A stretch of 64,000 nt of DNA from a virus (lineage: Duplodnaviria; Caudoviricetes), in IMG/VR virus record IMGVR_UViG_3300017914_002582, positions 3,526 through 67,525 of that record; one strand, given 5' to 3'. Both the position numbers and the translations under genes were made by a program. Each line of letters opens with the position of its first letter. The stretch's first letter is position 1. Below the pieces are notes generated by a model. The model saw only the letters and a program-made list of their open reading frames with translations. It had not been told where the DNA came from and did no database searches. This document shows, one piece after another, positions 5,541 through 51,177 of the stretch.

Positions 5541-5560
5541 AATTTATTTCCTTTTATAAT

Positions 5561-6837: not shown

Positions 6838-6842
6838 GTCTC

Positions 6843-7292: not shown

Positions 7293-7301
7293 ATTGTTTC
7301 C

Positions 7302-7327: not shown

Positions 7328-7339
7328 AGGGTAAAGACT

Positions 7340-8407
7340 ATGGCATTCAATCCACTATCTGGCGGTTTTCAAGCAGTTCAAAACTTTGCAGAACGTTCGC
7401 TTAGAAATAATAAGCCAGGGCCTAAATTTGATCCATTACAGAAGAATGGAACTATACTATACTTCCCGAACGATCTAGCATCCGCGGATGAAGCTCTTAG
7501 ACCTATTATTCGATTTACTTGTTTTGAAAGAACAGGCAAAACTGGTGGGCCGACAACACATCGAATACACTTACCCTGTCCACCAAATATTGCGTTTAGT
7601 GATAATGCTCAGTACTCAAGTATAGACTTAGGTCAAATGGGAGCAGTAACTGCTCAGGCAACAGAAAATATACAATCAGGGCAGGGAATCGGAGAAGCTA
7701 TTGGTCAGTCAGTAGATAATATCGATATAACTAAAATAGTAGCAACTAATGTTGGTCAAAAAATTGCACCAGCATCAACTGGTAATGCGCTATTTGCTAA
7801 TAAACTAATTAAAAACCCCAACACAAATACTTCATACACTGGTTCAGGCGTTAGGGCATATACATTTAATTTTAAAATGGTTGCAAATTCAGCTGAAGAA
7901 TCTATAATTATAAAACACATTCACCAACTTTTCCGAAAACAGATGTATGCTGCTAAAACATTTAATGGGGAAGAAGGACTATTGAGATACCCGCCGACTT
8001 GGGGAATCGACTTTATGAAAATAAAAGATAATAAACTTAGCCGTAATGATTATATTCCTGTCCCATACGCATGTTATCTTACGGCGTGTAATACTACTTT
8101 TAATGCTGCAGCAGATAGTTGGCACTCAGAAGGCCAGCCGTTTGAGGTAGATGTTTCTATTAACTTCCAAGAAACAAGAAATCTATTCAGAGAAGATATC
8201 GACAGACTTGAATCAATTGCAGGTGATCCAAATAACAAGCAAAATCAAATCCAACGCGGGGTTTCTGAAACTGGACTTGCTCTCACACAGACCCCCGATC
8301 AATATAATTATACTCCCGATCAAGATGCTACGGCAGCTGAAGCAAACAGAACACAAACCGTTTCAGTCACGGAGGGTAATATTCAGGCTGGAGGTAATTT
8401 AGAATGA
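7340..8407 (+). CDS. gp48: Baseplate tail tube cap gp48
   Basis: LYFPNDL, IHLPCPPNIAFSDNAQY, NPNTNTSYTGSGVRAYTFNFKM, LRYPPTWGI, CYLTACNTTF, INFQET. Confidence 0.85.
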   Translation: MAFNPLSGGFQAVQNFAERSLRNNKPGPKFDPLQKNGTILYFPNDLASADEALRPIIRFTCFERTGKTGGPTTHRIHLPCPPNIAFSDNAQYSSIDLGQMGAVTAQATENIQSGQGIGEAIGQSVDNIDITKIVATNVGQKIAPASTGNALFANKLIKNPNTNTSYTGSGVRAYTFNFKMVANSAEESIIIKHIHQLFRKQMYAAKTFNGEEGLLRYPPTWGIDFMKIKDNKLSRNDYIPVPYACYLTACNTTFNAAADSWHSEGQPFEVDVSINFQETRNLFREDIDRLESIAGDPNNKQNQIQRGVSETGLALTQTPDQYNYTPDQDATAAEANRTQTVSVTEGNIQAGGNLE

Positions 8408-33343: not shown

Positions 33344-33552
33344 TGGATGATTACAGCCCAGTTGAAGATAATCCTAAATTGGTTAGAGATAACTATAGTA
33401 AAGCGATTATAAATACTGACAGTGAGGCTTATGATGCGTATATGAAACGTAAGAAGAAAGCTATAGAAAAAGAAAATGAATTACAAAATTTAAAAAAGGA
33501 AGTAAGTGAAATAAAAGACTTACTTATACAAATTGCAAAAAAGGTAGGATAA
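33343..33552 (+). CDS. Conserved small coiled-coil protein, 69 aa
   Basis: VEDNPKLVRD..SKAIINTD..AY pattern, which typically follows VrlC-like genes in marine T4-like phages; stop/start overlap with the upstream gene. Confidence 0.8.
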   Translation: MDDYSPVEDNPKLVRDNYSKAIINTDSEAYDAYMKRKKKAIEKENELQNLKKEVSEIKDLLIQIAKKVG

Positions 33553-33555: not shown

Positions 33556-36500
33556 ATGCCACAGCAGACAGATACATTTACTTCGTTATCAGCTCAGTTG
33601 ACAGCTAGAAATTTAGGAACAGTTGGAGATACATTTACTCTTCCAGCTAACTATAGTAGCTCGATACTGGAATCTGAAAAGCTCGCATTTCCGTCTGGAG
33701 GTATTTCCACCACACAATCACTCAATGAATTTCGTAAAGTTGTAAACCAAATTGCAGTTGACTTAAAGGATGAGTCGGAGAATCTACAAGCACAGATTAC
33801 AGACAAAGGTGTTGACATCAGCGAGATCGATACTAACCTTATCGAAATCGGAAGTGATTTACAAGATATTGCTACTGATTTAATTCGTAAGGCTTGGGAC
33901 TCGATTCAAATTAATGCTGGAACTGGCTTATCAGGCGGGGGTGATCTTACTGCTGACAGAACAGTAAATCTAAAAGTAGCCACTACTACTGAAATCGGTG
34001 GCACTCGTTCCTTTGCTGGTTCTATTGCAGAAGGTGCAACAGAATCTAGTATCACTGGTCACATTATAGTAGACGACGATGGTTACATGAAAGTTCTAGA
34101 TAACGCAATAGAACTTGGTGTTAAGACCCGCGGTAATTATGTCAAAGCAGTTTCTTCTACGGTTGGGGATGGTGTTACGATTACTAATTCTTCTGGTGAA
34201 GGGGTAACTCCTGACTTTAAATTAACAGAAAGAATTGTTGCTGGGACGATTGGTTCTTCTAGTACTTCTTCTAATATCAAGACTGTTAATGTTCCAAAGA
34301 TCACATATAATAAATTCGGACAAATTACTGCAGTCACTACAGAATCTACAGTCTCTGCAAACAATTCAACCGTTAATTTATTAATAGCTAGTGCGGATAC
34401 AGGTCTTAGATTTGATACCACAGGTAATTCAAAATCTAAAAGTTTTACATTGAATAAAGGTTCTGCCCAATCAATTACTATTAGGCATAATGAAACTCGT
34501 AGTAATGCAGTTGACGAACAGGTTGTTACAACTAGAATAGGGGCGTTTCTTCAAGAAGGAACAGAAATAACTCAAGCGGACGCAGGCGTAAGAATACCTT
34601 CTACTATAAAAATTGATAAATATGGCCACGTTACTAATATTGCAACTAGAGCATTATCGTACGGTATGACACAAGCTAACCGACTTGTATTATCTGCCGC
34701 TGCAAATTATTCAGGTACAATGATTGGTGGTAAAGAAGTCTTCGATTTACATGTCCCAAGAGAGGCTGATTTTAAAGCGCTAAAAGCTGTTGTTGACACT
34801 AACCGTCAGCTAGCACTAGCTGACTTGGACGCGGATGATAATACTGACCTAGCCGAAATCCTTGGTGGAATCGTTTTTGACGGCACTAAAACAACTAAGT
34901 TTTTCCGTAACGCAGTTTTTGCGGGTGATCTTACCATTGGTAAAAATTTCCAGATCGGGGATTTTGGTTTTCCCGCATTATCGATTGATACTGTCCGCGA
35001 TACTATAGGAATCGGTGCACCTAATGCAGGTGGAACAGCCACCATTGCCCAGGTAGATATTTCACTCGATCCAAGGCCGACTGAAGTCGGCGGAGGTGGC
35101 CACCCCGAATCAATAGTCGGCGATGGATCAACAGATGTTGTGGTAAACCTCCACCGTCCAGTAGATGGAGAATCTAAAGGAGGTAGGTTTGGTATTCGTA
35201 TGTCTACATACAGAGGCGGCAGTTACAATGGAAGGCCGCTTCTAGGAAGATCAGGTGGCATTTACGCTACTGTTGACGAAAGTCATGGTAATCAAGTAGG
35301 ACTAGCTTTCCATACTGGTTCATCTTCTGCAACTACGGAGTTCGGTGTTGAAAGAATGAAACTCACACACGATGGCCGACTTGGTATTGGTATTTCTGCA
35401 CCAACCCAAAAATTAGAAGTAATTGGCACCTCAAGGTTTCAAGGTGCAATGCAAATTGATACAGCTGGAGATGCATTAAAAATTACAGGTGACGCAACGT
35501 TAGACAATAGTGATGCATCAATACTCCTTGGTAACAACGGAGTTGACTATCGACTTAAATATGTCGGCAGTGGGTCTGAAACCGAAAACCGTTTTCAAAT
35601 TTTGAGTAATCTTAACGGTACACAAACAAAAATTTTAAATACTACAACTGACGGTAATATTGCTTTCAGTGATGATAGATTAGTTATTAAAACAAGTGGC
35701 AATGTAGGTATCGGTGTTACAAATCCCACGAAAAAACTTCATGTTGCAGGAACCGCACGGTTTACTGGCAATGTTGATTTTGACCAAGACCTTGAAGTTC
35801 AAGGTTCGGTTGGTATCACTGCAGGAGCGTTAAAAACAGAAGAGTGGTTGTACCACGCTGGTGATACAGGATCAGGAGATAGAACTAGTTTTCGTGAAGC
35901 AAAACTTAAAATCTATGGAGGTAGTACATCTGAAGCTGCTAAACACCACTTTAAGTTACTTGAATTTCCTGCTGCTATGACTAACAAATACGCGTTTATT
36001 GAAGTTCATCGAGCGCATGATTACGGAAGTACTAATAACGGCTGTATTCATAAAGTTTTAATTAACGGCAGAATAAATTCTGGCACCGACACTCTTAAGT
36101 ACTATCACAAACACGAAGGTAAAATTTTAATTGACAGTAACAATGTAGCATATATTGAATTTTTCAAAAACACAGCTGGAAACGTTCAAGTATATCTAGT
36201 AGCTGAAGATTATTACGAAGGTACGGTCGATATTCGATATATGGATAAAAGTAGAGAGAGTAGTCAAAGAGCTACTTTATTCGCTAACCCAACATCACAG
36301 GCCACCGCCGACTCTGGGTATTCTTCACAGTACTCTACAAAGGTTGATGGAGACGATAAACCTAATTGGGAAGAAGCATTAGGTGAGCTGACTGTAAATG
36401 GATTACTTAAAACTACAGATAGGTTCACTGCAGATAACTTCTGGCTGGATGTCAACAGAGACGAAACACGAGCATCAATAGGTGGATTTAGCACATCGGG

Positions 36501-39500
36501 TGCTGATAATAGAAGATCAAAAACTGCAGATAATGGAAATATCTTTGATCTATACGGAGATAATAATAGGTTTGCTGAATTTAGAGCTTTAGGTAGTAAT
36601 GTAGGTACACAGAGTTCTGGTAGATTTTTCGCAGGTCAAGCTAGTAATTATGGTGGAGGTTTGCAATATATTGGAAACGCTACTAATGGTGCTGGCGTTA
36701 TTAAAGCAACAGGTGGTAGTAGTGCTAATGATCTAATACAATTCTTTAGAAGAGAAGCCAACTCTGATATTTGTGTATTTGAATATCCGGTTGGTAGTAG
36801 TAATGTAAGTTTTCGTGGGGGTATATCAGTCAAAGATAATGCTACTATCACCCAAAACCTGACTGTAAACGGTACTTCAAGTCTAAAAAATGTTACGGTT
36901 ACTGGCGACCTCACCGTTAGTGGTAAACTTGTTTCTGATGCTCAAGCAGATTCTTTAACATCTAATTTTATTCGTGGACATATTAGTGTAAAGAATCCGA
37001 CTGAAACTGGTACACCGCCAAGTGGCACTGATTCATTTTCAATTAGTAATAGAGATTACAAAAGAGGTAAATCATCATTCTTTGCGGGTACTAATATAGA
37101 TTATTTAGTATTTGAAAAAACTGACCAAAATGGTGCTATACCAGATGGTGGTATGATATTCTCATTTACGGGTAATGATAGTATTGAAAGAGAAAAGGTT
37201 AGAATAACCTCTGCTTCAACTACATTTTTACATCCCGTGCTGTTTGATAGTAATCTATCCATTAGAAAATCCACTAGTACTAATAGAGAGATTACCATTA
37301 ATAGTAGATCAAGTAATAATGACAGGCTAAGAATTGTTTCTCAAGGAACCGGCGGAGCATGGAATACCAACAACAATGGTTTTCAGATAGAAAGAAAAGT
37401 AGATAGCAGCGTTAGAGGATTCGTCAAATTCCCCACTTCCGCTGATTTAGCACTACAGTTCGGTAATGATAGTGGCATTACCATGACAATAAACAATAAT
37501 AAAAATGTTGGTATCGGAACTACTACTCCGCAGAGAAAACTTGATGTTGTAGGACGAGGCAGATTTGCCTATCAAGGCGCAACACTTCAACTTAGTGGTG
37601 ATGATGCAAATAGCCATACATACATAGAATTTCGTAAACAGGCTTCATCTCCTAGAGCAGCTTATATCGGAATTCCGAATAACGGCAGTAATAATATTGA
37701 CATTGCAGCTCAATTGAGTGGTGCTGATATTGAACTTAAGCCAAACAGATTTACTCGGACTAACAAACCTGTAGTAGTTGGGGGAACTACTAGACTAAAC
37801 GATGAAAAATTAAGAGTTGTCGGTAGAGTAAGAATTAACTCTGGCCAAACTATTGCTTCAACTTCGGATTCAAGAGACATAGACAATGCAGCTATAACCA
37901 TTACGCCGGGTAACGATCTTTCCGGACAAGCTCTAGGTCTTGACGCTAATGAAATAATATTCCAATCAGACGGTAATCTAGGTACTATTGGTGACTTCGG
38001 TTTGAACGTTATCATAAATGGACAAGCAAAGCATAAGTTTGCAAATAACGGTCGGGTTGGTATTAATACTTTGACGCGAAACCCAACGGACACGTTAGAG
38101 GTTAATGGAACATTCAGGGCAACCGGCAACTCTGTCGTTGAAGGGACTCTAACTTCAGAAGGAAACATAAAAACTAAAAATAATTTAACAGTTGATAAAG
38201 ACATTATAATGTCTGGCCATGATTTTCGGATGTATAATCGTACTAGAGCTGGTGGAAACAGTCACGACGGCCGTGCATTAGTACACGGAGGTGGAGACGT
38301 ATTAGAAATAAATCATGCTGATGATTTTACCGGCGGTGTTAAGATAGGGAATGTCAATGCTAAACTAAGCATTGGTAGTGCTCGCTTTCTGGGCAGCAGC
38401 GGTGGTGTAATGGATGGAACTAATACAGCCGCGGCTGCATTAACAATTCCTTCCGTTGATGTACTAGGAAGCTTGTTCCTAGACAATACCGAAATTGTAG
38501 CTAGTCAAACATTAAAACTAAACTCTATTAGTAATAAAATATTTATTAGAGGAAATAATAAAGTTGGTATTGGCCGAGAAAACCCACAATACCCTCTTGA
38601 TGTAAATGGTATCATTTCTGCTAGAGGAATAACAGTTGGTAATACATCAGCTGGAGGTTCATCTCAACACAACTTATTATATAATGCAAACAATCGTTAC
38701 ACTGTTACACAATCTGGTACAGCAGCTAGTGGAAGCAATCCAATCAATATTGCTGTATTATTTGATGGAACTCTAAACCCAACTATAGCTACCGGGCTAA
38801 ACTTTAGTGATCCCTATGTCCTTGAGATTGCGGGATTGCCAAATCAAGCTATTCAACGGTACGGAATGGTAGGATGGACTTCTAGATTCTTTGGGCCAAA
38901 GAAATTCAAGATAGAACTATTTGATTCGACGACACAAGTGAACAAATATATCACAGTAGCAGATTTCCAAAATACCGCGAACGAAGAAGCATATAATAGA
39001 GGCTTATATGCTAAAGAAATTGGTAGCGAAGTAGGCATTAGTGGTAATTTCACAAAAATGAAGTTGACTGTATATGAAGCGGGGGCTGGAGGCCAATTAG
39101 CTTTATCTGAAGTATTCTTCATTCACCCCGAAGCAACTAGACCTTTTTCCGGCCTTGTACCAGCTAGTTTACATGAAGGTGGAAGTTTAGACTCTAATCA
39201 AGTCGTTACTGCTGCTGGATTCGGTGCAACTAATCCCACAAACCGTTTAGAAATTAGTACACCGGATTACGATAGCTCCGGCCATGCAACTGATGAAACA
39301 CGGTCTAAAAATATTCCGGTTCGTGTATCGTCAGAAAGTAGTTATAATAACCAAGTTACAGGTATTGAGTTTAAGAATGGTAGTGATAAAACAGCACCTA
39401 CTTCCCGTATTGTTTCTAAAAGAGATGGCAATGCATCAGGTGGTGAAAAACTTGAGTTTCAAACTCAGCCGAAAGTTAATTCTGGAACAAACAATAATCA

Positions 39501-40398
39501 ACCTACAACTAAACTAATTCTAGGTTCCGATGGTGAAAACCAATTAAACGGATATTTAAATATTAACGGAGGGAACGCATATACAACCGCCGTATCACAC
39601 ACACTGACGAGTAATAAAACTTTCAACTTATTATCTTCTAACGTGTTTGTTATTACTGTACCTAGTAGTGAAGACACAGAATCTCATACTATATCAGCAA
39701 AAGCATCTTCTTATCCTGCAGGTGCTACATATACATTTGTAATTAGAAACCAATCAGAGGCAACCGTATTATTTAATTCTGGCCATTTTGTGTGGGTAGG
39801 GGAAACTCCTGAAATATCTAAAAACGGAACTGATATTGTATCAGCAGTTTCGGATGGAAGTAACTTGTATCTTGCTGCTGTCCATGATGATAGTAAACTT
39901 GTGTCGTACGCTAATGTAAGAAATATAAAGACAATTAGTACAAACGCTGTCAGCACCTTTAGTGGCACTCACTCTGGACGAATATACACTCCCTTTTCTG
40001 GAAATATGACAGTTAAAAGACCCAATTCAGATATGATCTTTAACCTTGCTCTACACATTGGTAACAATGATCCAACCCAATATGCAGCTGTCAATATAGA
40101 ATATCAGTGGAATGGAACTGATGGGACTTGGATCGGTGTACCACTTGACGCAGCCGGAGGCGCATCCGCGTTCGGTGGAATTTCAATATTTGGGCACCAT
40201 CTGCAGCGGACAGATCAAATTGGCCCTGTAGTAATACCGACATTAGTTCAAGATGTAGGTAGTTCTAATGAAGGTGATGTATTTTACTGGAGAGTTAGAC
40301 TTCGTAATTCCGATGGAGCTATATTTATAAACCGAAGCGAAAATAATGCGTTTCGTGCTACTAGTTGGATTACCGTAGAAGAACATTATAAGGAGTAA
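33556..40398 (+). CDS. Long tail fibre-like protein, 2280 aa
   Basis: Gly/Thr/Ser-rich with five (G/K/N)xVGI(G/N)...P...L(D/E/H)VxG repeats near 35375, 35698, 37501, 38050 and 38557; distinct C-terminal domains. Confidence 0.8.
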   Translation: MPQQTDTFTSLSAQLTARNLGTVGDTFTLPANYSSSILESEKLAFPSGGISTTQSLNEFRKVVNQIAVDLKDESENLQAQITDKGVDISEIDTNLIEIGSDLQDIATDLIRKAWDSIQINAGTGLSGGGDLTADRTVNLKVATTTEIGGTRSFAGSIAEGATESSITGHIIVDDDGYMKVLDNAIELGVKTRGNYVKAVSSTVGDGVTITNSSGEGVTPDFKLTERIVAGTIGSSSTSSNIKTVNVPKITYNKFGQITAVTTESTVSANNSTVNLLIASADTGLRFDTTGNSKSKSFTLNKGSAQSITIRHNETRSNAVDEQVVTTRIGAFLQEGTEITQADAGVRIPSTIKIDKYGHVTNIATRALSYGMTQANRLVLSAAANYSGTMIGGKEVFDLHVPREADFKALKAVVDTNRQLALADLDADDNTDLAEILGGIVFDGTKTTKFFRNAVFAGDLTIGKNFQIGDFGFPALSIDTVRDTIGIGAPNAGGTATIAQVDISLDPRPTEVGGGGHPESIVGDGSTDVVVNLHRPVDGESKGGRFGIRMSTYRGGSYNGRPLLGRSGGIYATVDESHGNQVGLAFHTGSSSATTEFGVERMKLTHDGRLGIGISAPTQKLEVIGTSRFQGAMQIDTAGDALKITGDATLDNSDASILLGNNGVDYRLKYVGSGSETENRFQILSNLNGTQTKILNTTTDGNIAFSDDRLVIKTSGNVGIGVTNPTKKLHVAGTARFTGNVDFDQDLEVQGSVGITAGALKTEEWLYHAGDTGSGDRTSFREAKLKIYGGSTSEAAKHHFKLLEFPAAMTNKYAFIEVHRAHDYGSTNNGCIHKVLINGRINSGTDTLKYYHKHEGKILIDSNNVAYIEFFKNTAGNVQVYLVAEDYYEGTVDIRYMDKSRESSQRATLFANPTSQATADSGYSSQYSTKVDGDDKPNWEEALGELTVNGLLKTTDRFTADNFWLDVNRDETRASIGGFSTSGADNRRSKTADNGNIFDLYGDNNRFAEFRALGSNVGTQSSGRFFAGQASNYGGGLQYIGNATNGAGVIKATGGSSANDLIQFFRREANSDICVFEYPVGSSNVSFRGGISVKDNATITQNLTVNGTSSLKNVTVTGDLTVSGKLVSDAQADSLTSNFIRGHISVKNPTETGTPPSGTDSFSISNRDYKRGKSSFFAGTNIDYLVFEKTDQNGAIPDGGMIFSFTGNDSIEREKVRITSASTTFLHPVLFDSNLSIRKSTSTNREITINSRSSNNDRLRIVSQGTGGAWNTNNNGFQIERKVDSSVRGFVKFPTSADLALQFGNDSGITMTINNNKNVGIGTTTPQRKLDVVGRGRFAYQGATLQLSGDDANSHTYIEFRKQASSPRAAYIGIPNNGSNNIDIAAQLSGADIELKPNRFTRTNKPVVVGGTTRLNDEKLRVVGRVRINSGQTIASTSDSRDIDNAAITITPGNDLSGQALGLDANEIIFQSDGNLGTIGDFGLNVIINGQAKHKFANNGRVGINTLTRNPTDTLEVNGTFRATGNSVVEGTLTSEGNIKTKNNLTVDKDIIMSGHDFRMYNRTRAGGNSHDGRALVHGGGDVLEINHADDFTGGVKIGNVNAKLSIGSARFLGSSGGVMDGTNTAAAALTIPSVDVLGSLFLDNTEIVASQTLKLNSISNKIFIRGNNKVGIGRENPQYPLDVNGIISARGITVGNTSAGGSSQHNLLYNANNRYTVTQSGTAASGSNPINIAVLFDGTLNPTIATGLNFSDPYVLEIAGLPNQAIQRYGMVGWTSRFFGPKKFKIELFDSTTQVNKYITVADFQNTANEEAYNRGLYAKEIGSEVGISGNFTKMKLTVYEAGAGGQLALSEVFFIHPEATRPFSGLVPASLHEGGSLDSNQVVTAAGFGATNPTNRLEISTPDYDSSGHATDETRSKNIPVRVSSESSYNNQVTGIEFKNGSDKTAPTSRIVSKRDGNASGGEKLEFQTQPKVNSGTNNNQPTTKLILGSDGENQLNGYLNINGGNAYTTAVSHTLTSNKTFNLLSSNVFVITVPSSEDTESHTISAKASSYPAGATYTFVIRNQSEATVLFNSGHFVWVGETPEISKNGTDIVSAVSDGSNLYLAAVHDDSKLVSYANVRNIKTISTNAVSTFSGTHSGRIYTPFSGNMTVKRPNSDMIFNLALHIGNNDPTQYAAVNIEYQWNGTDGTWIGVPLDAAGGASAFGGISIFGHHLQRTDQIGPVVIPTLVQDVGSSNEGDVFYWRVRLRNSDGAIFINRSENNAFRATSWITVEEHYKE

Positions 40399-41308: not shown

Positions 41309-41890
41309 ATGAGTGAAAAATATTGCATAGTATATAATGAAAAAGTTTTATGCCGAGGCCTGTTAAAAGATCATGGCGAAAACATTCGTATAGAAGAGTA
41401 TCATACTAAAGAGATAAAGTTGTATGATCCAAGTGAAGTAATTCTTTGCACTTCTAACAAAACATGGTTTCACAAGTGCTACGATTTTATTGAAAACGCA
41501 CGGTCGAATAAAATATTTCTAGAGAAAGATATAGAAAAAATATATTCTTCTTTTACTCCTGCTACTACATATTATAGACTTTCTGGTTTAAGAAGTCTAG
41601 GTATAACAGATTTAGACGATATAAATGATCTATCGTTTGAACAGCTTAAAGATATCATATTGAGAATGATTGATAAAAAACTTTTGCAACAACACAAGTA
41701 TATCGAAAAGGATAGAGACTTAGAGAGGCCTGAAAAGGATATGCTTAAGAAAATCGTAGTTGATGCAAAGGATACATATCTTACGTTCGTTGAAAAAACT
41801 AATTCTAGGAGAGAACTGTTAGAACACTTGCCAAGTTGTTTCCATGATGAAATATACTACATAGATAAGATTATAGGTGCATTTGATTAA
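41309..41890 (+). CDS. Hypothetical protein, 193 aa
   Basis: ORF only; tightly packed with both neighbours; no motif recognised. Confidence 0.6.
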   Translation: MSEKYCIVYNEKVLCRGLLKDHGENIRIEEYHTKEIKLYDPSEVILCTSNKTWFHKCYDFIENARSNKIFLEKDIEKIYSSFTPATTYYRLSGLRSLGITDLDDINDLSFEQLKDIILRMIDKKLLQQHKYIEKDRDLERPEKDMLKKIVVDAKDTYLTFVEKTNSRRELLEHLPSCFHDEIYYIDKIIGAFD

Positions 41891-42495
41891 TGAAGATATG
41901 CCTTGTAACATTTTCCGATGTTTACTATAAAACAATCTTAAAACCTCTTACACGTTCAAAAGAAAAGTATTGTGAGATGCATGGCTATGATTTCTTTCAC
42001 GAATCTATTGAATTAAACTTAACAAAATCGTACAAAGAATATGACTTAGGTTGGGAAAAGCTTAGGCTTGTTGACAAATATTTTGCTACTTATGACTTGG
42101 TTTATATAACAGATATAGATACCGCAATACTAGATTTTTCCGTTAAGCTAGAAGACCTCATAGAAAGTAAAGATATGGTAGTATCTGAACTACAAGATGG
42201 GTTTATTACTTTGGGCGGTGCGCTTTGGAGAAAGACAGATAACACAAAAGATATATTAAATACTTTATTGTCTTTTAAAAATCAAAAGGGGTGGCTAACT
42301 GAAGAAACGGAGTTTAATAATTTGCCTCTAAAAAAATATGATATATGTATTGACAATCGTATAAATTATTTGTATAATATACATAGAGACCTAAACCCAA
42401 TACTTATTCATTATGCAGGGGTGGTAAATCCGTATATAATAAAACAGAAATATGAAAAGACACTTAGTACAACCAGAAAACAAATACGATCTTAG
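41890..42495 (+). CDS. Glycosyltransferase, GT-A fold, GT34 (GMA12/MNN10)-like
   Basis: KEKYCEMHGYDF, WEKLRLV, YDLVYITDID (DxD motif), ILIHYAG. Confidence 0.78.
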   Translation: MKICLVTFSDVYYKTILKPLTRSKEKYCEMHGYDFFHESIELNLTKSYKEYDLGWEKLRLVDKYFATYDLVYITDIDTAILDFSVKLEDLIESKDMVVSELQDGFITLGGALWRKTDNTKDILNTLLSFKNQKGWLTEETEFNNLPLKKYDICIDNRINYLYNIHRDLNPILIHYAGVVNPYIIKQKYEKTLSTTRKQIRS

Positions 42496-43321
42496 GTATT
42501 CGCGAAACGAGTGTGTATTCCCATCCTTTGCAGATAAAGTTCTTAAAGAGATTAAATTTAATCCGTCTGACTTGTGTCAGTATGATTCATCTTATCAAGT
42601 CTTAAATAATATTGCAACCAAACTTAATTGTGATATTAACACTATTTCTGCTCATAATGGTTCCGAATGTGTAATACGATCAATTGCAGAAGAACTATCA
42701 GCTGAAAAATGGGTATTTACAAACCCAACCTTTGAGCTTGCTAAATATTACATTTCGAGGTATTCTCAATACGAAGTAGTTGACTATATATACAATGACG
42801 GATTTTCATTGTCTTTCGATTCTATTAAAGATAAAAAAGATAAAACTTTATACATCGTGTCGCCACACAATCCCACTGGCTGTGTCCATAACATTGAAGC
42901 TTTGTGCAATGAATTTAAGTATGTGATTCTTGATGAAGCTTATGTAAATCCCCTGTCTCCTTTACCTGTATTTGATAACCTAATAACTATCAGAACATTT
43001 AGCAAGATGGGGTTACTTAGTGGTGTTCGGTTTGGTTTTTGTCATGGCCCAGTTGATCTTATTGAAAGAATAAACAGCATTAGACCAATGTATATGTCTT
43101 CAATGACAAACAAACTTGTTAATCATATTATTGACAATGACATAACTGACAAATTAGAGCTTTATATAAAAAACGACATCCTGCCAAAATATTCTAAATA
43201 CAATCCGATATTACATTGCGGTAATTTTATTCTACTAAAGAATGATCCGATTGGCAACCTAAAGAAATATGTATTTGGAAATCATGTATTTTGGAGAATG
43301 ACACTGAATGAATTTAATTAG
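42452..43321 (+). CDS. PLP-dependent class I/II enzyme (HisC aminotransferase / CobD decarboxylase-like)
   Basis: NGSECVI, SPHNPTG, ILDEAY, and IRTFSKMGLLSGVRFGF containing the PLP lysine motif. Confidence 0.88.
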   Translation: MKRHLVQPENKYDLRYSRNECVFPSFADKVLKEIKFNPSDLCQYDSSYQVLNNIATKLNCDINTISAHNGSECVIRSIAEELSAEKWVFTNPTFELAKYYISRYSQYEVVDYIYNDGFSLSFDSIKDKKDKTLYIVSPHNPTGCVHNIEALCNEFKYVILDEAYVNPLSPLPVFDNLITIRTFSKMGLLSGVRFGFCHGPVDLIERINSIRPMYMSSMTNKLVNHIIDNDITDKLELYIKNDILPKYSKYNPILHCGNFILLKNDPIGNLKKYVFGNHVFWRMTLNEFN

Positions 43322-44000
43322 CACTTACTTTACATCTGACAGTGAAGAGTTAAACGATCACTATACTAATGTATTGCTACCGTTGTGGTATAAAACAAAT
43401 TCTAAGTATTTTGATGAAATAACAATTTTTACTAATGCTCCAGATAGAATACCGTTCTCCTGTACCATTCTTGAAAGAACTAAGGAACATGCTTTGTTAG
43501 GGGTTTCAAGCCAAAATGTAAACATAATGTCAACACAGATAGGTTGTTGGCAAGAGTATCTTTATTCATATTTAAAAGATAACGAAGTGGCAATATATCT
43601 TGACCCAGATGCCTTTATGCTAAATGATAAGTTGATCGGTTGTGCACAGAATACTAAACACTACAAAATGACAAAGAAGAAAACACCGTATTTTGAAGCA
43701 GACGCTGGGATTAGTATTTTTCGTAGAACTCCAGAAACATTAAAATATATTGACACCATTGTAGAAGCATATAAAGAGAATCCATTTGAAAAGTCAATTG
43801 CCGAGATAACACATTATAAAATGCACAAAGGCCAAAGTGAATACTATATACCTTGGAAAGATGTTACAATATCTTTGAGGGGTGAAGCAAGTGGTGATAA
43901 CATAGATTGTATTCACGGTTGCACTGAATCAACCCGAATCGATCAATCAATAAAATCTGCAATTCTTAAAAAAGAGTTACTTCGCAATCTTGTTTATTAA
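43308..44000 (+). CDS. Putative nucleotide-diphospho-sugar transferase (GT-A-like)
   Basis: AIYLDPDAF (DxD after a hydrophobic strand), ADAGISIFR, CIHG near the end; flanked by glycosyltransferases. Confidence 0.6.
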   Translation: MNLISTYFTSDSEELNDHYTNVLLPLWYKTNSKYFDEITIFTNAPDRIPFSCTILERTKEHALLGVSSQNVNIMSTQIGCWQEYLYSYLKDNEVAIYLDPDAFMLNDKLIGCAQNTKHYKMTKKKTPYFEADAGISIFRRTPETLKYIDTIVEAYKENPFEKSIAEITHYKMHKGQSEYYIPWKDVTISLRGEASGDNIDCIHGCTESTRIDQSIKSAILKKELLRNLVY

Positions 44001-44636
44001 TTTATCGACATGCGTTACTAGTTTCTTTTTACGGAGGAGCCCTAATTCAAAATACTGGTCTGGCTCTTGTATTACAGGTTTTTTATACGGAACAAAGGTG
44101 TCTTCCAAGTTATGATAATAGTGTGTACCTTTGTATCCGCTATCGAATCCCATATAGTAAACTTTATAGTTATGCTCTAATGCCTGATAGATAGCTGTCA
44201 TGCCAACTGTAGAGGACTTTGTGTATTTTATTGGCTTTACTTTTACTACTTTGTGGTGTAAATTTCTAACTTGTTTAAAGTCATAGAACATAGAGCGTTC
44301 ATAGTCATTTGCATTTCTCCAGATTTCTCTTATTGAAGAGTGTTTGATACAGTCATATATACGTTGTCTTTTATTTTTTAATTCTGTTTCATCATACCAC
44401 TTGTCCCACGCAAGTTTTTCTTCTTCTGAATTTAAACATTCTCTATACGAATACTTTTTAAATTCTAGTCCAGGCGCAACAAGCATATTTGGATTGCCGA
44501 TATACTCTTTGAACTCATCAAGGAAATATAGTTGATACTTAATTATCATTATATTATCAAAGAGCTGATTGATTTGTTCGCCTCTCTTCTTATCAAGTAC
44601 GTCCATACCTGACCCAATAATTAAAATGTTTTTCAT
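43977..44636 (-). CDS. GT29 (sialyltransferase)-like glycosyltransferase
   Basis: ILIIGSGMDVLDKKRGEQINQLFDNIMII (L-motif-like), STVGMTAIYQAL...VYYMGFD (S-motif-like), THYYH. Confidence 0.68.
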   Translation of the reverse strand: MKNILIIGSGMDVLDKKRGEQINQLFDNIMIIKYQLYFLDEFKEYIGNPNMLVAPGLEFKKYSYRECLNSEEEKLAWDKWYDETELKNKRQRIYDCIKHSSIREIWRNANDYERSMFYDFKQVRNLHHKVVKVKPIKYTKSSTVGMTAIYQALEHNYKVYYMGFDSGYKGTHYYHNLEDTFVPYKKPVIQEPDQYFELGLLRKKKLVTHVDKLINKIAK

Positions 44637-45586
44637 ACCAGTCTTACTTTCGGGTTTGTGTTTGTTCTAACTACGATGTCTTCGTTAGTCATATCTTTAT
44701 GTGCTGGGTTGTCACTATATACAATGCTAGTTTCGTGTTTATTGCATAATAACTGATCGCAGTTGTCACAATATGAGTATTTGCTATAATCATTATCTAT
44801 ATGTGCTTGTCTAAGTTTATTATAAGCATCACCGTTTAAAATGTCTATGATTGTATCTTTTGACGCATCACCTAATACTATGTTTTCATTATAGTCATAA
44901 CAACATGGAACTACAATTCCTGACCAGTTTATTTGAAGAGGGCCAGACTGCGGTCTACCACACGTTGTTTTATTAGTATTGAGCTCTCGAAAGTTTCTAC
45001 CATTACCAAAATTATGAGGTTTCCAAATCTCATAGTAATCAACTACGTCTTTAAAGATTTTGGGATAAGATTCTACTGTCTCATTTCCATCGAAGTCAAG
45101 TAAGTAATGGCTTACTTCACACGCACCTTTATGTTTTTTAAGAAGTTCTATGTTTGAAAGGACATTTTTAAAGTTCCCACCTACCATAGTGTTTGAGTAT
45201 TTAGTTTCTGTATTCCCATAGAAACTTAAACGTAGCTCATCAAGTCCGTTCTCTATTGCACATTGAATTTTTGTTTTAGATGTATCATATCTTGAGGGTT
45301 GGTGAAACAGAGAAGCATTACTTATAACATAGGTTAGTAAGCCGTGGGATTTTGCAATCTTAATTTTAAGTTCTAGAGTCGGATCGGCAAAAGGTTCTCC
45401 ATAACCAGTCAATACTACTTTTTTAGCACCGAGCTCAGTAATTTGTTGGATTATAGAAATATATAAATCCATATTCATAATACTTTGAGGGCGGGTGTGT
45501 TTATCTCTAGGGCACATTACACAGCTGTAGTTGCACAGATTAGTTGGTTCTATTCTAACCTCTTCGTTTACTAAGCGTGTGACCAT
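44633..45586 (-). CDS. Radical SAM protein with SPASM/Twitch domain
   Basis: EPTNLCNYSCVMCP (CxxxCxxC), GYGEPFAD, CGRP...INWSGIVVPCCYD, YCDNCD. Start taken at MVTRL (45586). Confidence 0.92.
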   Translation of the reverse strand: MVTRLVNEEVRIEPTNLCNYSCVMCPRDKHTRPQSIMNMDLYISIIQQITELGAKKVVLTGYGEPFADPTLELKIKIAKSHGLLTYVISNASLFHQPSRYDTSKTKIQCAIENGLDELRLSFYGNTETKYSNTMVGGNFKNVLSNIELLKKHKGACEVSHYLLDFDGNETVESYPKIFKDVVDYYEIWKPHNFGNGRNFRELNTNKTTCGRPQSGPLQINWSGIVVPCCYDYNENIVLGDASKDTIIDILNGDAYNKLRQAHIDNDYSKYSYCDNCDQLLCNKHETSIVYSDNPAHKDMTNEDIVVRTNTNPKVRLV

Positions 45587-46401
45587 AATTCTCCACACTC
45601 CATGCCATTTATATCACACTTATTGCAAGGTGTTAAATCATTTCTTTTTGTACTAGTCATACTTTTAACAAAGTCTTTAAACCTATCACTTTGTAGATAC
45701 TCTTCTACGTTCATATCTTTTACGTTATATGTTTTATCTTTGCTTATATCTGCTTCACGATGCCAATCAGACATACAGAGTAAGTACTGCCCATTCCAAT
45801 CTATCTTTATTTTGTAGAATGGTACATAACATGGACGATCTAAAGTATTACCTTTATGCCCTTGTATTTCAGCTGAACCGGCCCTGTTATAGTAATTAAG
45901 ACTTTCTATAGTTTTAGCATATACTTTGTTTAAGATTACTTCTTTTTTATCTAGGTTAGTAGATTCACTAAAGGTATCTACGATTGTGTATTGACTGTGC
46001 TTAAACATTTCCATCATAAACTCATATTGGTGTGGGCCGTCATAAAGATCGACTTTAAACTCTTGAACATTTAATTTTTCAAACTTGTTTATTAGTTCAA
46101 GATTCAGTCTGTCACCATTTGTTATTATTTTAATTGGATATTTTTTAGATAAAATCTTAATGCCTTCTAGTAACTGTTTAGCATAAAGAGGGTCACCAAA
46201 TCCAGCATTTGATATAATTCCGTTAAAGATGGTAGATTCTAATGATCTTAAAATATCATAGTATGTGTTAGGCGTCATGTATTGATCGAAACGGTTTGGA
46301 TAAACTTCTGGATCATGTCTAGGGCAGAACCAACACCGGCGGTTACAGATTTCGGTTACATTCAGCTCTACTATTTTAATATTTTCAGCGTATGTCATCA
46401 A
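45571..46401 (-). CDS. Radical SAM protein with SPASM/Twitch domain
   Basis: ELNVTEICNRRCWFCP (CxxxCxxC), GFGDPL, ITNGD, YYNRAG, PCYVPF...IDWNGQYLLCMSDW, PCNKCD. Confidence 0.92.
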   Translation of the reverse strand: MMTYAENIKIVELNVTEICNRRCWFCPRHDPEVYPNRFDQYMTPNTYYDILRSLESTIFNGIISNAGFGDPLYAKQLLEGIKILSKKYPIKIITNGDRLNLELINKFEKLNVQEFKVDLYDGPHQYEFMMEMFKHSQYTIVDTFSESTNLDKKEVILNKVYAKTIESLNYYNRAGSAEIQGHKGNTLDRPCYVPFYKIKIDWNGQYLLCMSDWHREADISKDKTYNVKDMNVEEYLQSDRFKDFVKSMTSTKRNDLTPCNKCDINGMECGELWSHA

Positions 46402-47026
46402 TATGTTTTATCTTATTTTCATTTACTAATTTTTTTATTAACATACTTTCGGTGAGGTAATCACCTTGTGCATGTATCATTGTCATCACATTCTCTGGCA
46501 TACTTTCATCGTAGTAGTGATGGCCTTTTCGATACGAATCTATCCCCATGTAGTACACTTCTGAATACATTTTCATAGCCCGAACCAAACTTTGTAAACC
46601 AAGAGAGTGATGTTGTTTGCCTGGCAAAATCGGATTAACTATATTATGAAACTCGATGTTTTCTGGTATTTCAAAGTCTAATTCGTTTCTGTTTTCATTG
46701 CTGTTACACCAAACCTCGCGAATGTTACTATGTTTAAGTATGTCATGCACTAGTAACTTATGTTCATCTATTGGGTCAAACAACTTGCTATGTCTAGCAC
46801 CCCATGCGGGTAAATCTTCTAAGAGAGTTTCATTATCTTTTATATCTTTTGGAGAAGACCACCCGCAAGTTCCCCAAATGTTTGGATTGCCGATATATTT
46901 TCGATGAGAAGACAGATTAAATAGTGTTTTATTGCATATTAGCACGTCATCAAACGTAGCTTCTATAAATTCACCACGTTCACACTTAGTCACATCAACG
47001 CCATTACCTATTATAAGTATTTTCAT
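46385..47026 (-). CDS. GT29 (sialyltransferase)-like glycosyltransferase, second copy
   Basis: MKILIIGNGVDV...RGEFIE..FDDVLICN, HSLGLQSLVRAM..YSEVYYMGID, HHYYD. Paralogous to 43977-44636, sharing YIGNPN. Start taken at 47026. Confidence 0.68.
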   Translation of the reverse strand: MKILIIGNGVDVTKCERGEFIEATFDDVLICNKTLFNLSSHRKYIGNPNIWGTCGWSSPKDIKDNETLLEDLPAWGARHSKLFDPIDEHKLLVHDILKHSNIREVWCNSNENRNELDFEIPENIEFHNIVNPILPGKQHHSLGLQSLVRAMKMYSEVYYMGIDSYRKGHHYYDESMPENVMTMIHAQGDYLTESMLIKKLVNENKIKHIDDIR

Positions 47027-47039
47027 GCTATCTTGTAAC

Positions 47040-47057
47040 TTATTTATATATAAATAA
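47040..47057. promoter_or_regulatory. Back-to-back late promoters forming an 18 bp palindrome
   Basis: TTATTTATATATAAATAA contains TATAAATA on the minus strand (47041-47048, toward the GT/rSAM genes) and on the plus strand (47049-47056, toward gp13). Confidence 0.85.
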
Positions 47058-47061
47058 AGGT

Positions 47062-47874
47062 ATGTCACAGCCAAATTCTAGACAAACATTAGTTGATTAT
47101 TGTTTACGTGCTCTCGGGGCACCAGTAATTGAGATTAACGTAGACGATGACCAGTTAGGTGATCGCCTAGATGAAGCCTTACAGTTTTATCAAGAGTATC
47201 ATTCAGATGCCACTATTCGCAGATTTAGAAAATACACTCTTACGGCAGATGATATAACAAACCAATACATCACAATACCAGATACATATCTGACAATAAC
47301 GCGGGTGTTACCATTTGATTCTAACGGTGCAGGAACTGGTGATTTCAATATCGAGTATCAGATGATGCTAAACGATATCTATGATCTTCGGGCACCCCAA
47401 CATTCGATGCTTAACTATACTATGACACACCAGCATCTAGCGCTTATTGACCAAGTATTTGATGGTAAAGACCAGACGGTTCGTTACAATAGACATATCA
47501 ATAAATTATTTATTGAAACACGGTGGGGGACTGATATCAAAGAGGGTTCTATTATTGTGTTTGAAGGTTATGAAGCAATCGTACCAAGAACTTCACACAC
47601 AGCAACTACATACGGCTCTGGTTATGACGCAGACGCACCGACTGAAGCAACGTCAACACAAATTTATAACGACATGTTTTTGAAAAAATATCTAACTGCT
47701 CTTATTAAAAAACAATGGGGTATTAATCTTAAAAAGTTTGAGGGTATACAGCTTCCAGGCGGAGTAACACTTAATGGCCAACAAATCTTTGATGAAGCAG
47801 TTGAAGAGATAAATAGGCTGGAAGAAGAAGTACAACTTAAACATGAGATGCCTCCAGCATTTTATGTAGGATAA
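47062..47874 (+). CDS. gp13: Neck protein gp13
   Basis: SRQTLVDYCLRALGAPVIEINVDDDQ, WGINLKKFEGIQLPGGVTLNGQQIFDEA. Confidence 0.96.
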   Translation: MSQPNSRQTLVDYCLRALGAPVIEINVDDDQLGDRLDEALQFYQEYHSDATIRRFRKYTLTADDITNQYITIPDTYLTITRVLPFDSNGAGTGDFNIEYQMMLNDIYDLRAPQHSMLNYTMTHQHLALIDQVFDGKDQTVRYNRHINKLFIETRWGTDIKEGSIIVFEGYEAIVPRTSHTATTYGSGYDADAPTEATSTQIYNDMFLKKYLTALIKKQWGINLKKFEGIQLPGGVTLNGQQIFDEAVEEINRLEEEVQLKHEMPPAFYVG

Positions 47875-48783: not shown

Positions 48784-49513
48784 TGGTATACATTTCTATC
48801 ATGCAACCATAAAAAGGATTGTGTCGGTGTTCGGTACATGTTTTAATAACATTATTATCGGACGCTATGACGGTATAAAAATGACTAACACCCAACGTGT
48901 TCCAATATCGTATGGGCCAAGAGAAAAGTTTACTGGTAGAATGAATCAAGACCTCAATGAACAGAGAGTAGCGATCAAGCTCCCTAGGATGTCATTTGAG
49001 ATTACAAGTATTGCATACGATCAAAGTACGAAGTTAAATCGTCTTAATAGAAAATTGACAGACGGCTCAGACACTACGAAAAAGACTACGACATACCAAA
49101 GTGTTCCGTATACACTAGGAATGCAGTTAAATATTCTAGCAAGAAACCAAGAAGATGCACTACAGATTGTCGAACAGATACTTCCAACATTTTCTCCTGA
49201 ATATACGGTTAGTGTAAAAGATATTGATGGGCCGGGTTCTATTACAGACGTGCCAATTATCTTAGACGGCGTAACATTTACTGATGATTACGAAGGAGAC
49301 TTTACTGGAAGAAGAACATTAATATACACACTTGATTTTACAATAAAGGTTAAGTTCTCGCCTGATAGCTCTGAAAATGCTATCATTAGAAAAGTCACAG
49401 CAAATATCTTAGATAACAGTAACGTAACAAGTCTTACGGATTCTAAGATACTAAATACAATTATTGTTAGACCGACGCAGCAAGACTTAGAAGATTTTGG
49501 GTTTTCAGAATAA
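48776..49513 (+). CDS. gp15: Tail sheath stabiliser / terminator gp15
   Basis: HFYHATIKRIVSVFGTCFNNI, VPISYGPREKF, LPRMSFEI, QIVEQILPTFSPEY, RTLIYTLDF. Start at ATG 48776. Confidence 0.96.
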   Translation: MLSGIHFYHATIKRIVSVFGTCFNNIIIGRYDGIKMTNTQRVPISYGPREKFTGRMNQDLNEQRVAIKLPRMSFEITSIAYDQSTKLNRLNRKLTDGSDTTKKTTTYQSVPYTLGMQLNILARNQEDALQIVEQILPTFSPEYTVSVKDIDGPGSITDVPIILDGVTFTDDYEGDFTGRRTLIYTLDFTIKVKFSPDSSENAIIRKVTANILDNSNVTSLTDSKILNTIIVRPTQQDLEDFGFSE

Positions 49514-51177
49514 TGAGTATTAGAATATATACAACCACTATAAATGTCGATAAAAAGTTTGATGTAGAATTTACACCACAGAATTTTACTATGTCAGGCT
49601 TTCCGAGACAAAATGCAATTAGTTCGTTAAGTGTATTAAGTGGAACAGAATCTAACATTGATAGAATAAAGCATAACACTTTCGTATTTAATAGTGTGTC
49701 GGCAAGTGGAGGTACTGGTTCTGATGCTCGGTTTGATGTAACAGTAAATACTTTTACTGGTGCTGTTACTTCCGTTTCAATAAGAAATAATGGTTTAAAT
49801 TATACACTTGACGATGAGTTGACTATTGACGGCACAAAAATTGGTGAAGACTCACCAGATACACCATTAAGAAACCTTGTGTTGACTGTTGCGGGTGTTT
49901 CAAGCAATGGAGAAATTACAGCAGCTACAATTACAAGTGGTGACTCTCCTGAATCTGATCGCGTTGATAATTTTTCTCCTTCTATTATTCAACGAAGTGT
50001 TCCAGTAATTCCTGATTCACCAAATTCTAGTAGTGGCAATTTAGGATCAGTAGACATTACACTTGATAGAGTAACTGGAGAAATTACCGCTGTTGAATTA
50101 AATGACGGGGGTGGAAATTATAATATAAACGATGTATTGAAAGTTTCTAATGCAGATATAAGCATTCCAGCTGAACCAGATTCACCTGTTAATATAGAAA
50201 CTCTTCTATTTAATTTTAACAATTCACCTGTCTTTAATAGTCCTAATAGTCCTGCTTCTGGTAATCCACCAGACAATATTCCTGTTTTTCAAATAGATGA
50301 CACACCATTACCTGATAGCCCATTCCTCTTTCTAAGAGTAGATTCTATAACTAATACAGAGTATAATGGCAAATATAAATTAAATGGATTTGTTAATGAT
50401 AGACCAAACTATACACTAGATAGCCCTAACAGTCCGAACTCACCGTCTATAGCAGTAAACATTCGGTTTGAGGATAATTTCTGGAAAATAAACGATCCAG
50501 ATAGAACTATATGTATAAACTCACAAAATTTAGCGGTACCGCCGAGAGATGGTTGGGTTATTGCTATTGGAAGTGTATTATCAGTAGCCGATCAACCGTT
50601 TGTCCCAATATATAACAGTCCTAACAGTCCAGCTTCTGGTAATCCACCAGATAATGAACCACCGGCCGATCCGAATCTTGATGTGGTTCGTCTTACTACA
50701 AAAGAAGATAGTCCCTATTTAAAAAATGAGTTAGTGACTACAAAAGGTTCATTCAAATCAGCTAATGTTGACAGCCCAAATACATTAGTGAATGCTAAGA
50801 TTATTGTTAATGATCTTGGTGAACTATTTACCAAAGGGGAAATCCTTCAAGGGTTGGATTCAAAAGTGACAAAAACTATTCTTTCTATAAAAGACCACGT
50901 TCCGCCAGAATTAGTAATTGAAGAACCTGTTGAAGAAATAGTTATTCCGTTAGGTGGAGATGAAGTTTTTGTTGATAGTTCACCTTTCGATACACCTGCA
51001 AATATCCAAGGGGATACTCCCACTGGAATTGTTTTAGAAGGTCTAATATTAAACTCGCCAGGTGGTATCCTTGTTGCTAGTGATTCTCCCTTATCGGGAA
51101 TAAGCACCTTTGGATTTGATTTACCAGATGGTGGAACTAATAGCCCAGGAGTAGCGGATGACTCAAGTCCGTCATAA
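49513..51177 (+). CDS. DSP/NSP-rich putative virion protein, 554 aa
   Basis: Translationally coupled to gp15 (TAATG). Contains 9 DSP and 9 NSP tripeptides and two GxNY beta-repeat units of the kind seen in phage structural proteins. Confidence 0.7.
   Translation: MSIRIYTTTINVDKKFDVEFTPQNFTMSGFPRQNAISSLSVLSGTESNIDRIKHNTFVFNSVSASGGTGSDARFDVTVNTFTGAVTSVSIRNNGLNYTLDDELTIDGTKIGEDSPDTPLRNLVLTVAGVSSNGEITAATITSGDSPESDRVDNFSPSIIQRSVPVIPDSPNSSSGNLGSVDITLDRVTGEITAVELNDGGGNYNINDVLKVSNADISIPAEPDSPVNIETLLFNFNNSPVFNSPNSPASGNPPDNIPVFQIDDTPLPDSPFLFLRVDSITNTEYNGKYKLNGFVNDRPNYTLDSPNSPNSPSIAVNIRFEDNFWKINDPDRTICINSQNLAVPPRDGWVIAIGSVLSVADQPFVPIYNSPNSPASGNPPDNEPPADPNLDVVRLTTKEDSPYLKNELVTTKGSFKSANVDSPNTLVNAKIIVNDLGELFTKGEILQGLDSKVTKTILSIKDHVPPELVIEEPVEEIVIPLGGDEVFVDSSPFDTPANIQGDTPTGIVLEGLILNSPGGILVASDSPLSGISTFGFDLPDGGTNSPGVADDSSPS
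50236..50655 (+). repeat. Duplicated 42 bp unit encoding NSPNSPASGNPPDN
   Basis: 50236-50277 and 50614-50655 differ at 4 positions, all synonymous third positions. Confidence 0.85.

Follow-up and report, generated by a model that had tools for sequence, protein, structure and literature searches.

In a divergent, uncultured marine T4-like myovirus, a 5.7-kb island of eight genes between the tail fiber genes and the neck gene gp13 most likely encodes a glycan-building and glycan-tailoring set: four glycosyltransferase-type enzymes, a pyridoxal phosphate (PLP) aminotransferase, and two BtrN-like radical S-adenosylmethionine (SAM) enzymes. The island lies in a 64,000-nt stretch of DNA (hereafter, the window) that covers positions 3,526 to 67,525 of IMG/VR record IMGVR_UViG_3300017914_002582. 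This record is 67.5 kb long and approximately 37% complete, and its gp13 is approximately 40% identical to the gp13 proteins of Pelagibacter phages HTVC008M and Mosig and Caulobacter phage Cr30. Our preferred reading, to which we assign a probability of approximately 0.4, is that this mobile fiber-region island glycosylates virion proteins, chiefly the fiber or its tip. An earlier annotation made from the sequence alone (hereafter, the original prediction) had described a glycan-modification island between the fiber and neck genes, with virion proteins as the favored substrate. The enzyme set and the position were borne out by our analysis; the virion substrate is the part that we propose only tentatively.

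Gene layout and predicted enzymes

The eight open reading frames (ORFs) form two converging halves, g1 to g4 on the plus strand and g8 to g5 on the minus strand, which overlap by 24 nt at positions 43977 to 44000. The original prediction had described this arrangement, and we recovered it with the ORFs at the positions given below. Two starts in the minus half were revised. As called, g7 occupied positions 45571 to 46401 and g8 occupied positions 46385 to 47074; comparison with homologs places the true start of g8 at the ATG at position 47026, not at the upstream TTG, and the homolog P0027 places the start of g7 probably at 46398. The genes of the island are as follows.

41309 to 41890, plus strand: g1, 193-aa orphan with homologs in all five lineages that carry the island
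41890 to 42495, plus strand: g2, 201-aa GT34-like GT-A glycosyltransferase (PF05637 match, invariant D-x-D)
42452 to 43321, plus strand: g3, 289-aa PLP class I/II aminotransferase of the HisC/CobD branch (PF00155)
43308 to 44000, plus strand: g4, 230-aa GT8-like GT-A glycosyltransferase (fold model, invariant D99-P-D101)
43977 to 44636, minus strand: g5, 219-aa sialyltransferase-fold paralog of g8 (alignment with the g8 family)
44633 to 45598, minus strand: g6, 321-aa radical SAM enzyme with a SPASM/twitch C-terminal domain (PF04055 and PF13186)
45571 to 46398, minus strand: g7, approximately 275-aa BtrN-like twitch radical SAM enzyme (PF04055 and PF13186)
46385 to 47026, minus strand: g8, 213-aa sialyltransferase-fold (GT29/GT42-like) enzyme (fold model)

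Adjacent genes in the island overlap or lie no more than 5 nt apart, therefore positions 41309 to 47026 offer no space for a separate precursor-peptide gene. The G+C content of the island is 0.32 to 0.34, compared to 0.36 to 0.39 in its flanks. None of the eight proteins contains a hydrophobic segment (maximum KD19 of approximately 1.0), which indicates that they are soluble.

Two of the four transferases belong to the GT-A type. The g2 protein matched the GT34 profile PF05637 above its cutoff (E value 1.1e-7, 32.3 bits versus a cutoff of 23), with the match confined to N-terminal positions 23 to 112 of the 238-position profile, and its D75-x-D77 motif is invariant across four lineages. Based on this match and motif, we assign g2 as a GT34-like GT-A glycosyltransferase. 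For g4, there was no Pfam match at an E value of 0.1, and the GT8 profile PF01501 was not matched by sequence; however, the fold model (pLDDT 91) is of the GT-A type with GT8 structures closest. The structural neighbors are glycogenin (Z score 15.1, root mean square deviation 3.7, 200 residues aligned), AgtA (Z score 13.9), GlyE (12.9), LgtC (12.7), and PBCV-1 A64R (12.3). The model and the invariant D99-P-D101 motif identify g4 as a predicted GT8-like GT-A glycosyltransferase.

The other two transferases, g5 and g8, are paralogs with approximately 30% identity. The match of g8 to the GT29 profile PF00777 (E value 0.007, 16.3 bits) is below the gathering cutoff of 23 and covers only the C-terminal 70 profile positions, and the g8 family profile retrieved ST3Gal-I from the PDB at an E value of 0.7. 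In a Foldseek search with the g8 model (pLDDT 77), ranks 1 to 26 were all GT29/GT42 sialyltransferase chains. In the VIA comparison, g8 aligned with ST3Gal-I (Z score 11.9, root mean square deviation 3.0, 155 residues aligned), Cst-I (Z score 9.7), and Maf (Z score 8.8), and ST6GalNAc2 and ST8SiaIII were also matched; an MptE-type kinase and SteA followed close behind ST3Gal-I (Z scores 10.0 to 10.3). Several stretches of g8 resemble sialylmotifs L, S, and III (I-I-G-N-G...F-D-D-V-L-I-C-N, H-S-L-G, G-I-D-S, and K-G-H-H-Y-Y), as assigned by eye and from one weak hidden Markov model alignment, and a C-terminal His is invariant in the family. Because the Pfam score is below the cutoff, we refer to g8 and g5 as sialyltransferase-like proteins with a predicted GT-A variant 2 fold, not as GT29 members.

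Both g6 and g7 matched PF04055 and PF13186 above the cutoffs, and both contain the CxxxCxxC motif (C19/C23/C26) plus four further invariant cysteines, which in g7 correspond to the four-cysteine twitch pattern and not to the full seven-cysteine SPASM pattern. The only PDB sequence match of g6 was BtrN (E value 3.8e-10), and g7 matched BtrN over its full length (E value 2.8e-12). In comparisons with NCBIfam, neither protein reached an equivalog cutoff, and the matches to maturases were all far below theirs. By sequence, g6 and g7 are therefore classified as BtrN-like SPASM/twitch radical SAM enzymes.

The g3 protein scored 42.5 bits against PF00155 (cutoff 19.7), its PDB matches were HisC enzymes, and it retains the invariant motifs N-P-T-G, D-x-A-Y, S-K, G-x-R, and a C-terminal R-x-T-L. 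It is short, at 289 aa versus approximately 350 aa. With all PLP-binding motifs kept, g3 appears to be a compact aminotransferase of the HisC/CobD branch. We rejected equivalence with histidinol-phosphate aminotransferase (TIGR01141 hisC, E value 4.7e-23, 81.6 bits versus an equivalog cutoff of 276.55) or threonine-phosphate decarboxylase (TIGR01140, 59.3 bits versus 290.55), as both scores are far under the cutoffs. The remaining protein, g1, had no Pfam, PHROG, PDB, or Atlas match and has few invariant residues; its conservation marks it as an orphan member of the cassette. Overall, the family names given in the original prediction (GT34, PLP enzyme, DxD transferase, a GT29-like pair, and a radical SAM/SPASM pair) hold on both sequence and fold.

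Distribution, position, and putative promoters

All related phage records are fragments. We detected the cassette on contigs of uncultured phages that fall into five diverged lineages: the window together with L003 (98% identical to the window sequence) and L006, then L004, L005, L014, and L016. The core of the cassette consists of g1, g3, g4, at least one BtrN-like radical SAM gene, and at least one sialyltransferase-like gene. Outside this core, g2 is present in four of the five lineages and g5 in some lineages only, with a g5-type copy also in L014; L014 has a third radical SAM gene, and L016 has a GT8-like gene with a weak PF01501 match below the cutoff. The catalytic motifs are invariant among lineages that share just 25 to 67% identity, which suggests that the genes are under selection as enzymes.

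The protein families are small, with 13 clusters for g8, 10 for g4, and 11 for g7 (among 5.8 billion) and 22 representatives for g1 (among 1.84 billion proteins). Homologs of g4 and g8 were not found in 50,697 phage records, including the cultured pelagimyophages, and relatives of g8 were not found in a set of 185,579 prokaryote species (bacteria and archaea, one genome per species). The g8 family was found solely on phage contigs.

In all five lineages, the g1-to-g4 half lies directly behind genes with tail-fiber PHROG matches. The opposite flank varies and consists of gp13, helicase/PhoH, a third radical SAM gene, or fiber genes. In L016, a receptor-binding-type protein with an Mtd_N domain (major tropism determinant N-terminal; positions 13010 to 14116) adjoins the cassette, such that receptor-binding genes enclose it on both sides. 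In four sister phages of the window (L017 to L020, with gp13 74 to 83% identical), no cassette gene adjoins gp13; the upstream sequence is long enough to show the neighboring region in L018 and L019, where the fiber block runs directly into gp13. Because five lineages carry the cassette while sister phages are without it at gp13, the sequence comparison identifies the island as a horizontally mobile, selected accessory unit.

The genes and promoter-like boxes around the island in the window are as follows.

28310 to 33343: VrlC homolog
33408 to 33415, plus strand: TATAAATA late-promoter-like box ahead of the fiber gene, the closest such box upstream of the plus half
33556 to 40398, plus strand: tail-fiber-like gene (2,280 aa) directly upstream of the island, its N-terminal approximately 480 aa 34 to 36% identical to fiber genes of L018 and L019
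40401 to 41303, plus strand: 300-aa Lcl_C/DUF1566-like protein, a probable fiber-tip protein or adhesin (PF07603, 34.4 bits, just below the cutoff of 34.9)
47041 to 47048, minus strand, and 47049 to 47056, plus strand: back-to-back TATAAATA boxes for g8 to g5 and for gp13, respectively
47062 and 47884: gp13 and gp14, respectively

The gene for the 300-aa protein is part of the DNA that is missing in sister phage L018. This protein has no homolog in the other cassette lineages, where a weakly related family of 186 to 368 aa occupies the same place.

Pelagimyophages and cyanomyophages have a hypervariable "host recognition cluster" (HRC) between VrlC and gp14 (Zaragoza-Solas et al. 2020, PMC7029224). 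The HRC is rich in glycosyltransferases, of which GT8 is the commonest, and its radical SAM cassettes differ between close relatives; the authors interpreted HRC genes as modifiers of the host O-chain, a function that was not assayed there (PMC7029224). In the window, the fiber gene and the island are located between the VrlC homolog and gp13/gp14, which places the island exactly in the HRC of marine T4-like myophages.

Of the 14 TATAAATA boxes in the window, six begin no more than 60 nt ahead of a gene start, compared to an expectation of 2% (P of approximately 2e-7), and on this distribution we take the boxes to serve as late promoters in the source phage. As the original prediction stated, the minus half is preceded by such a box, back-to-back with that of gp13; we place it 14 nt from the start of g8. 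The clade-mate L006 has the same arrangement, and L018 and L019 retain the gp13 box. The gp13 box ends 5 to 6 nt before the ATG in the window (47049 to 47062), L018 (approximately 9985 to 10001), and L019 (approximately 9772 to 9787), therefore a late transcript from it would be almost leaderless. The plus half has no TATAAATA box of its own and is downstream of the fiber gene. We found no terminator-like site on the plus strand between the end of the fiber gene (40398) and position 44000, in agreement with the original prediction. The sole perfect sigma-70 promoter in the window (TTGACA-17-TATAAT, 12 of 12 positions) is inside g2 on the plus strand (42350 to 42378), 74 nt before g3; it is 11/12 in L003 and absent from the other lineages and was rejected as probably a chance match.

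Proposed role and competing explanations

We infer the donors, the reactions, and the acceptor in the scheme that we propose. A soluble, cytoplasmic set of enzymes would build and edit a short glycan. The two retaining-type GT-A enzymes g2 and g4 would add hexoses from UDP-sugars, and g8 and g5 would add host-derived, CMP-activated ulosonic acids (Kdo or a nonulosonic acid). The radical SAM enzymes g7 and g6 may activate a carbon of a sugar or cyclitol, by oxidation or in another way, and g3 may turn the resulting carbonyl into an amine or, alternatively, make an amino-alcohol phosphate substituent, with g1 as a non-enzymatic-looking helper. The acceptor would be a virion protein that is produced alongside the enzymes in time and location, mainly the tail fiber or the tip protein encoded upstream, and the phage would leave the cell with decorated fibers.

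We prefer a virion acceptor because of the constant fiber linkage, the late motif, the soluble cytoplasmic enzymes, and the precedent for virion glycosylation by phage-encoded enzymes, which mycobacteriophages provide according to work cited in PMC12801897 (Freeman et al. 2023). Several of the nearest structural neighbors of g4 glycosylate proteins (glycogenin, the Skp1 transferase AgtA, GlyE, and PBCV-1 A64R). The original prediction had argued that late timing and position favor a virion substrate. Insertion in the morphogenesis region, a late motif before the minus half, and fiber linkage in five lineages all agree with that argument; however, the site is the known hypervariable HRC, therefore its position may mark just a permissive insertion site, and the late box ahead of the minus half was seen solely in the window's own clade.

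Several observations weigh against virion glycosylation. A hypervariable site collects unrelated accessory genes, so the fiber linkage may be positional (PMC7029224). L004, L005, L014, and L016 have no late box ahead of the minus half, in contrast to the window's own clade (L006). In L004 (4940 to 7206), the sialyltransferase-like/radical SAM half overlaps the stop of a DNA helicase gene, itself located after phoH, therefore this half may be expressed with replication-class genes and not with late genes. GT8 enzymes and Cst-type sialyltransferases are classic enzymes of the lipopolysaccharide (LPS)/lipooligosaccharide (LOS) core and are also soluble. Neither a CMP-sugar synthetase nor NeuB was found in what is available of the five phage records, although at 7 to 39% completeness this absence is uninformative. 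Finally, the normal substrates of HisC-type aminotransferases are small phosphorylated compounds or amino acids, not sugars, and enzymes that aminate sugars mostly belong to the DegT type; this weakens the proposed amination in situ.

Profiling against DSP-type motifs, which the original prediction had suggested as a check, also came out negative. The 554-aa neck protein of the window (49513 to 51177) contains 18 [DN]SP motifs versus 1.1 expected, and nearly every SP follows D or N; in this protein and its homologs, [DN]SP (in L019, also [DN]TP) is 10 to 17 times more frequent than expected. The motif is equally enriched in the homologs from L017, L019, and L020, which have no cassette beside gp13, and in L006, making it a feature of the whole clade with gp13 identity of at least 74%, cassette or not. 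None of the structural proteins available from the cassette lineages L004, L005, L014, and L016, which are partial contigs, contains it. We therefore rejected DSP/NSP as the sequon of the cassette, with the qualification that partial contigs give no proof of independence; because the motif does not track the cassette, it lends no support to a virion substrate. Possible roles for the motif are a structural turn or a sequon that a host enzyme recognizes. Several giant baseplate and fiber proteins are also enriched in [DN]SP, and the loci at 16629 to 26336, 26392 to 28302, and 28310 to 33343 were noted for this feature as well.

A more specific version of virion glycosylation is a phage sialylation-like machinery, in which the two sialyltransferase-fold enzymes, a kind not described from phages before, cap a phage-built fiber glycan with host CMP-ulosonic acids while a radical SAM dehydrogenase and a HisC-type transaminase convert a hydroxyl to an amine on the sugar without NAD. 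We regard this version as unlikely. If it is true, the sugar coat of the virion would be edited and host-like, with effects on adsorption, grazing, or recognition by defenses.

The leading alternative to virion glycosylation, which we consider serious but less probable, is remodeling of the host envelope: soluble transferases at the inner membrane face would modify LPS/LOS core or capsule precursors, blocking superinfection or the sticking of progeny to debris. Slow-growing marine hosts have long latent periods, a point in favor of this explanation, and the bacterial fold relatives LgtC (GT8) and Cst-I/II (GT42) act on lipooligosaccharide. The island is located in the VrlC-to-gp14 HRC, a general sink for accessory genes, where GT8 transferases and radical SAM cassettes have been read as host modifiers (PMC7029224), and in Campylobacter, the serinol or ethanolamine phosphate that decorates the capsule comes from HisC/CobD-type enzymes (PMC12096443). 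However, a late-promoter motif and cotranscription with fiber genes leave little time for renewal of the outer surface, and the eight island genes include no flippase, polymerase, lipid-carrier transferase, or membrane protein. The g4 and g8 families are tiny (10 to 13 clusters in 5.8 billion) and g8 is without relatives among the 185,579 prokaryote species, so these genes are not likely to be simple captures from host LPS loci. The enzymes could instead make a free small molecule, an aminocyclitol- or aminoglycoside-like pseudo-oligosaccharide produced by a radical SAM dehydrogenase and an aminotransferase (as in butirosin), then glycosylated, that acts on the host or on competitors. BtrN, the one relative of g6 and g7 with a solved structure, is a 2-deoxy-scyllo-inosamine dehydrogenase; a radical SAM plus aminotransferase submodule is also present in cyanophage S-SCSM2R, with no glycosyltransferase neighbors, and in Campylobacter phages, where an amidinotransferase adjoins it, and the authors of PMC12801897 read a similar cluster as "antibiotic synthesis." We nevertheless consider this explanation doubtful, given that Pfam and NCBIfam comparisons revealed no cyclitol synthase, kinase, nucleotidyltransferase, exporter, or resistance gene, the identity to BtrN is low, four transferases in a 5.7-kb island are many for one product, and the constant fiber linkage is left unexplained.

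The two remaining explanations are considerably less probable. Known pathways of thymidine hypermodification involve radical SAM and PLP enzymes, and T-even DNA is glucosylated by glycosyltransferases, so the cassette might decorate a modified base to evade restriction, an outcome that the original prediction had named as one that would refute it. Such enzymes are needed during replication, which does not fit the late motif and the structural-module position, and the GT-A and sialyltransferase folds of the island are unlike the T4 DNA glucosyltransferases, which are GT-B enzymes. No hydroxymethylase or thymidylate-synthase-type gene was found in the available parts of the five records, although at 7 to 39% completeness this absence is uninformative. 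Close sister phages without the cassette would need a different DNA chemistry, and we regard DNA hypermodification as very unlikely. We give even less credence to peptide or protein maturation, in which the SPASM/twitch radical SAM pair would cross-link or oxidize a virion protein or RiPP-like peptide before the transferases act. SPASM-domain radical SAM enzymes are mostly peptide maturases, and g6 and g7 have weak NCBIfam matches to several of these; however, those matches are far below the cutoffs and BtrN is the sole PDB match, g7 has the four-cysteine twitch and not the seven-cysteine SPASM, and the overlapping genes leave no space for a precursor gene.

In marine T4-like phages that infect abundant bacteria, extensive variable regions beside the fiber genes are given over to sugar enzymes. 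The island described here is a compact case (5.7 kb, eight genes) with a defined conserved core and cassette-less sisters, which makes the question of what such enzymes are for tractable. If the glycan is on the fibers, phage-encoded virion glycosylation would extend from mycobacteriophages to marine myoviruses, and three enzyme types would be added to it: the sialyltransferase fold, twitch radical SAM, and HisC-type PLP enzymes. If the glycan is instead on the host envelope, the published guess would be confirmed. Either way, g1, g4, and g8 represent three new phage-restricted protein families.

Comparison with known systems

The closest biochemical precedent for the radical SAM and PLP enzymes is butirosin biosynthesis, in which BtrN works with the aminotransferase BtrS; BtrN is the sole solved relative of g6 and g7, and a PLP aminotransferase is encoded alongside them in the island. 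However, the similarity to BtrN is distant (phmmer E values of approximately 1e-10 to 1e-12), the island's aminotransferase is HisC type and not DegT type, and no other aminoglycoside genes are present. The g8 protein shares its GT-A variant 2 fold with the GT29/GT42 sialyltransferases and with the Maf transferases that add nonulosonic acids to flagellin, but it is much shorter (213 aa), has no membrane anchor, and belongs to a tiny phage-only family. Mycobacteriophage capsid and tail glycosylation and chlorovirus PBCV-1 A64R resemble the island in having soluble, virus-encoded GT-A transferases that are expressed, or in the island would be expressed, with structural genes; those systems are without radical SAM, PLP, and sialyltransferase-type enzymes.

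Combinations of radical SAM and aminotransferase genes also occur in other phages. In the Campylobacter phages CP220 and CPt10 (Eucampyvirinae), g7 homologs annotated as "BtrN protein" are located by an amidinotransferase and a class I/II aminotransferase, and the radical SAM module of Campylobacter phages is described as exchangeable and non-essential (PMC2853527). In Campylobacter phage vB_CjeM_WX1 (OP654737), the block at positions 2255 to 9261 combines multiple radical SAM genes with genes for an amidinotransferase, for a "BtrN protein" that shares 27.8% identity with g7, and, in convergent orientation, for a short class I/II aminotransferase; by sequence, this block looks like an aminocyclitol-type pathway in Eucampyvirinae. 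In Synechococcus phage S-SCSM2R (PQ898602), a g3 homolog adjoins a twitch radical SAM gene near a long tail fiber gene: positions 6944 to 8558 encode a HisC-like protein (g3 profile E value 1.7e-21) directly by a twitch/SPASM radical SAM protein (E value 1.4e-24), whose open frame exceeds the annotated CDS, approximately 2 kb upstream of the gene for the long tail fiber distal subunit. Unlike the island, neither the Campylobacter phages nor S-SCSM2R were found to have any of the four glycosyltransferase gene types of the window.

The HRC of marine T4-like myophages is the system to which the island belongs by position. Radical SAM and glycosyltransferase cassettes at this site are already published, which makes the finding less new than first rated. 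The published description (PMC7029224) mentions neither a conserved cassette nor genes of the sialyltransferase-like, BtrN-like, or HisC-like types, the cultured pelagimyophages are without g4 or g8 homologs, and the region in the window is smaller (approximately 13.7 kb versus a mean of 44.6 kb). However, the window shares the VrlC-to-neck layout with fibers and transferases, and within this layout the cassette is an indel relative to the sister phages.

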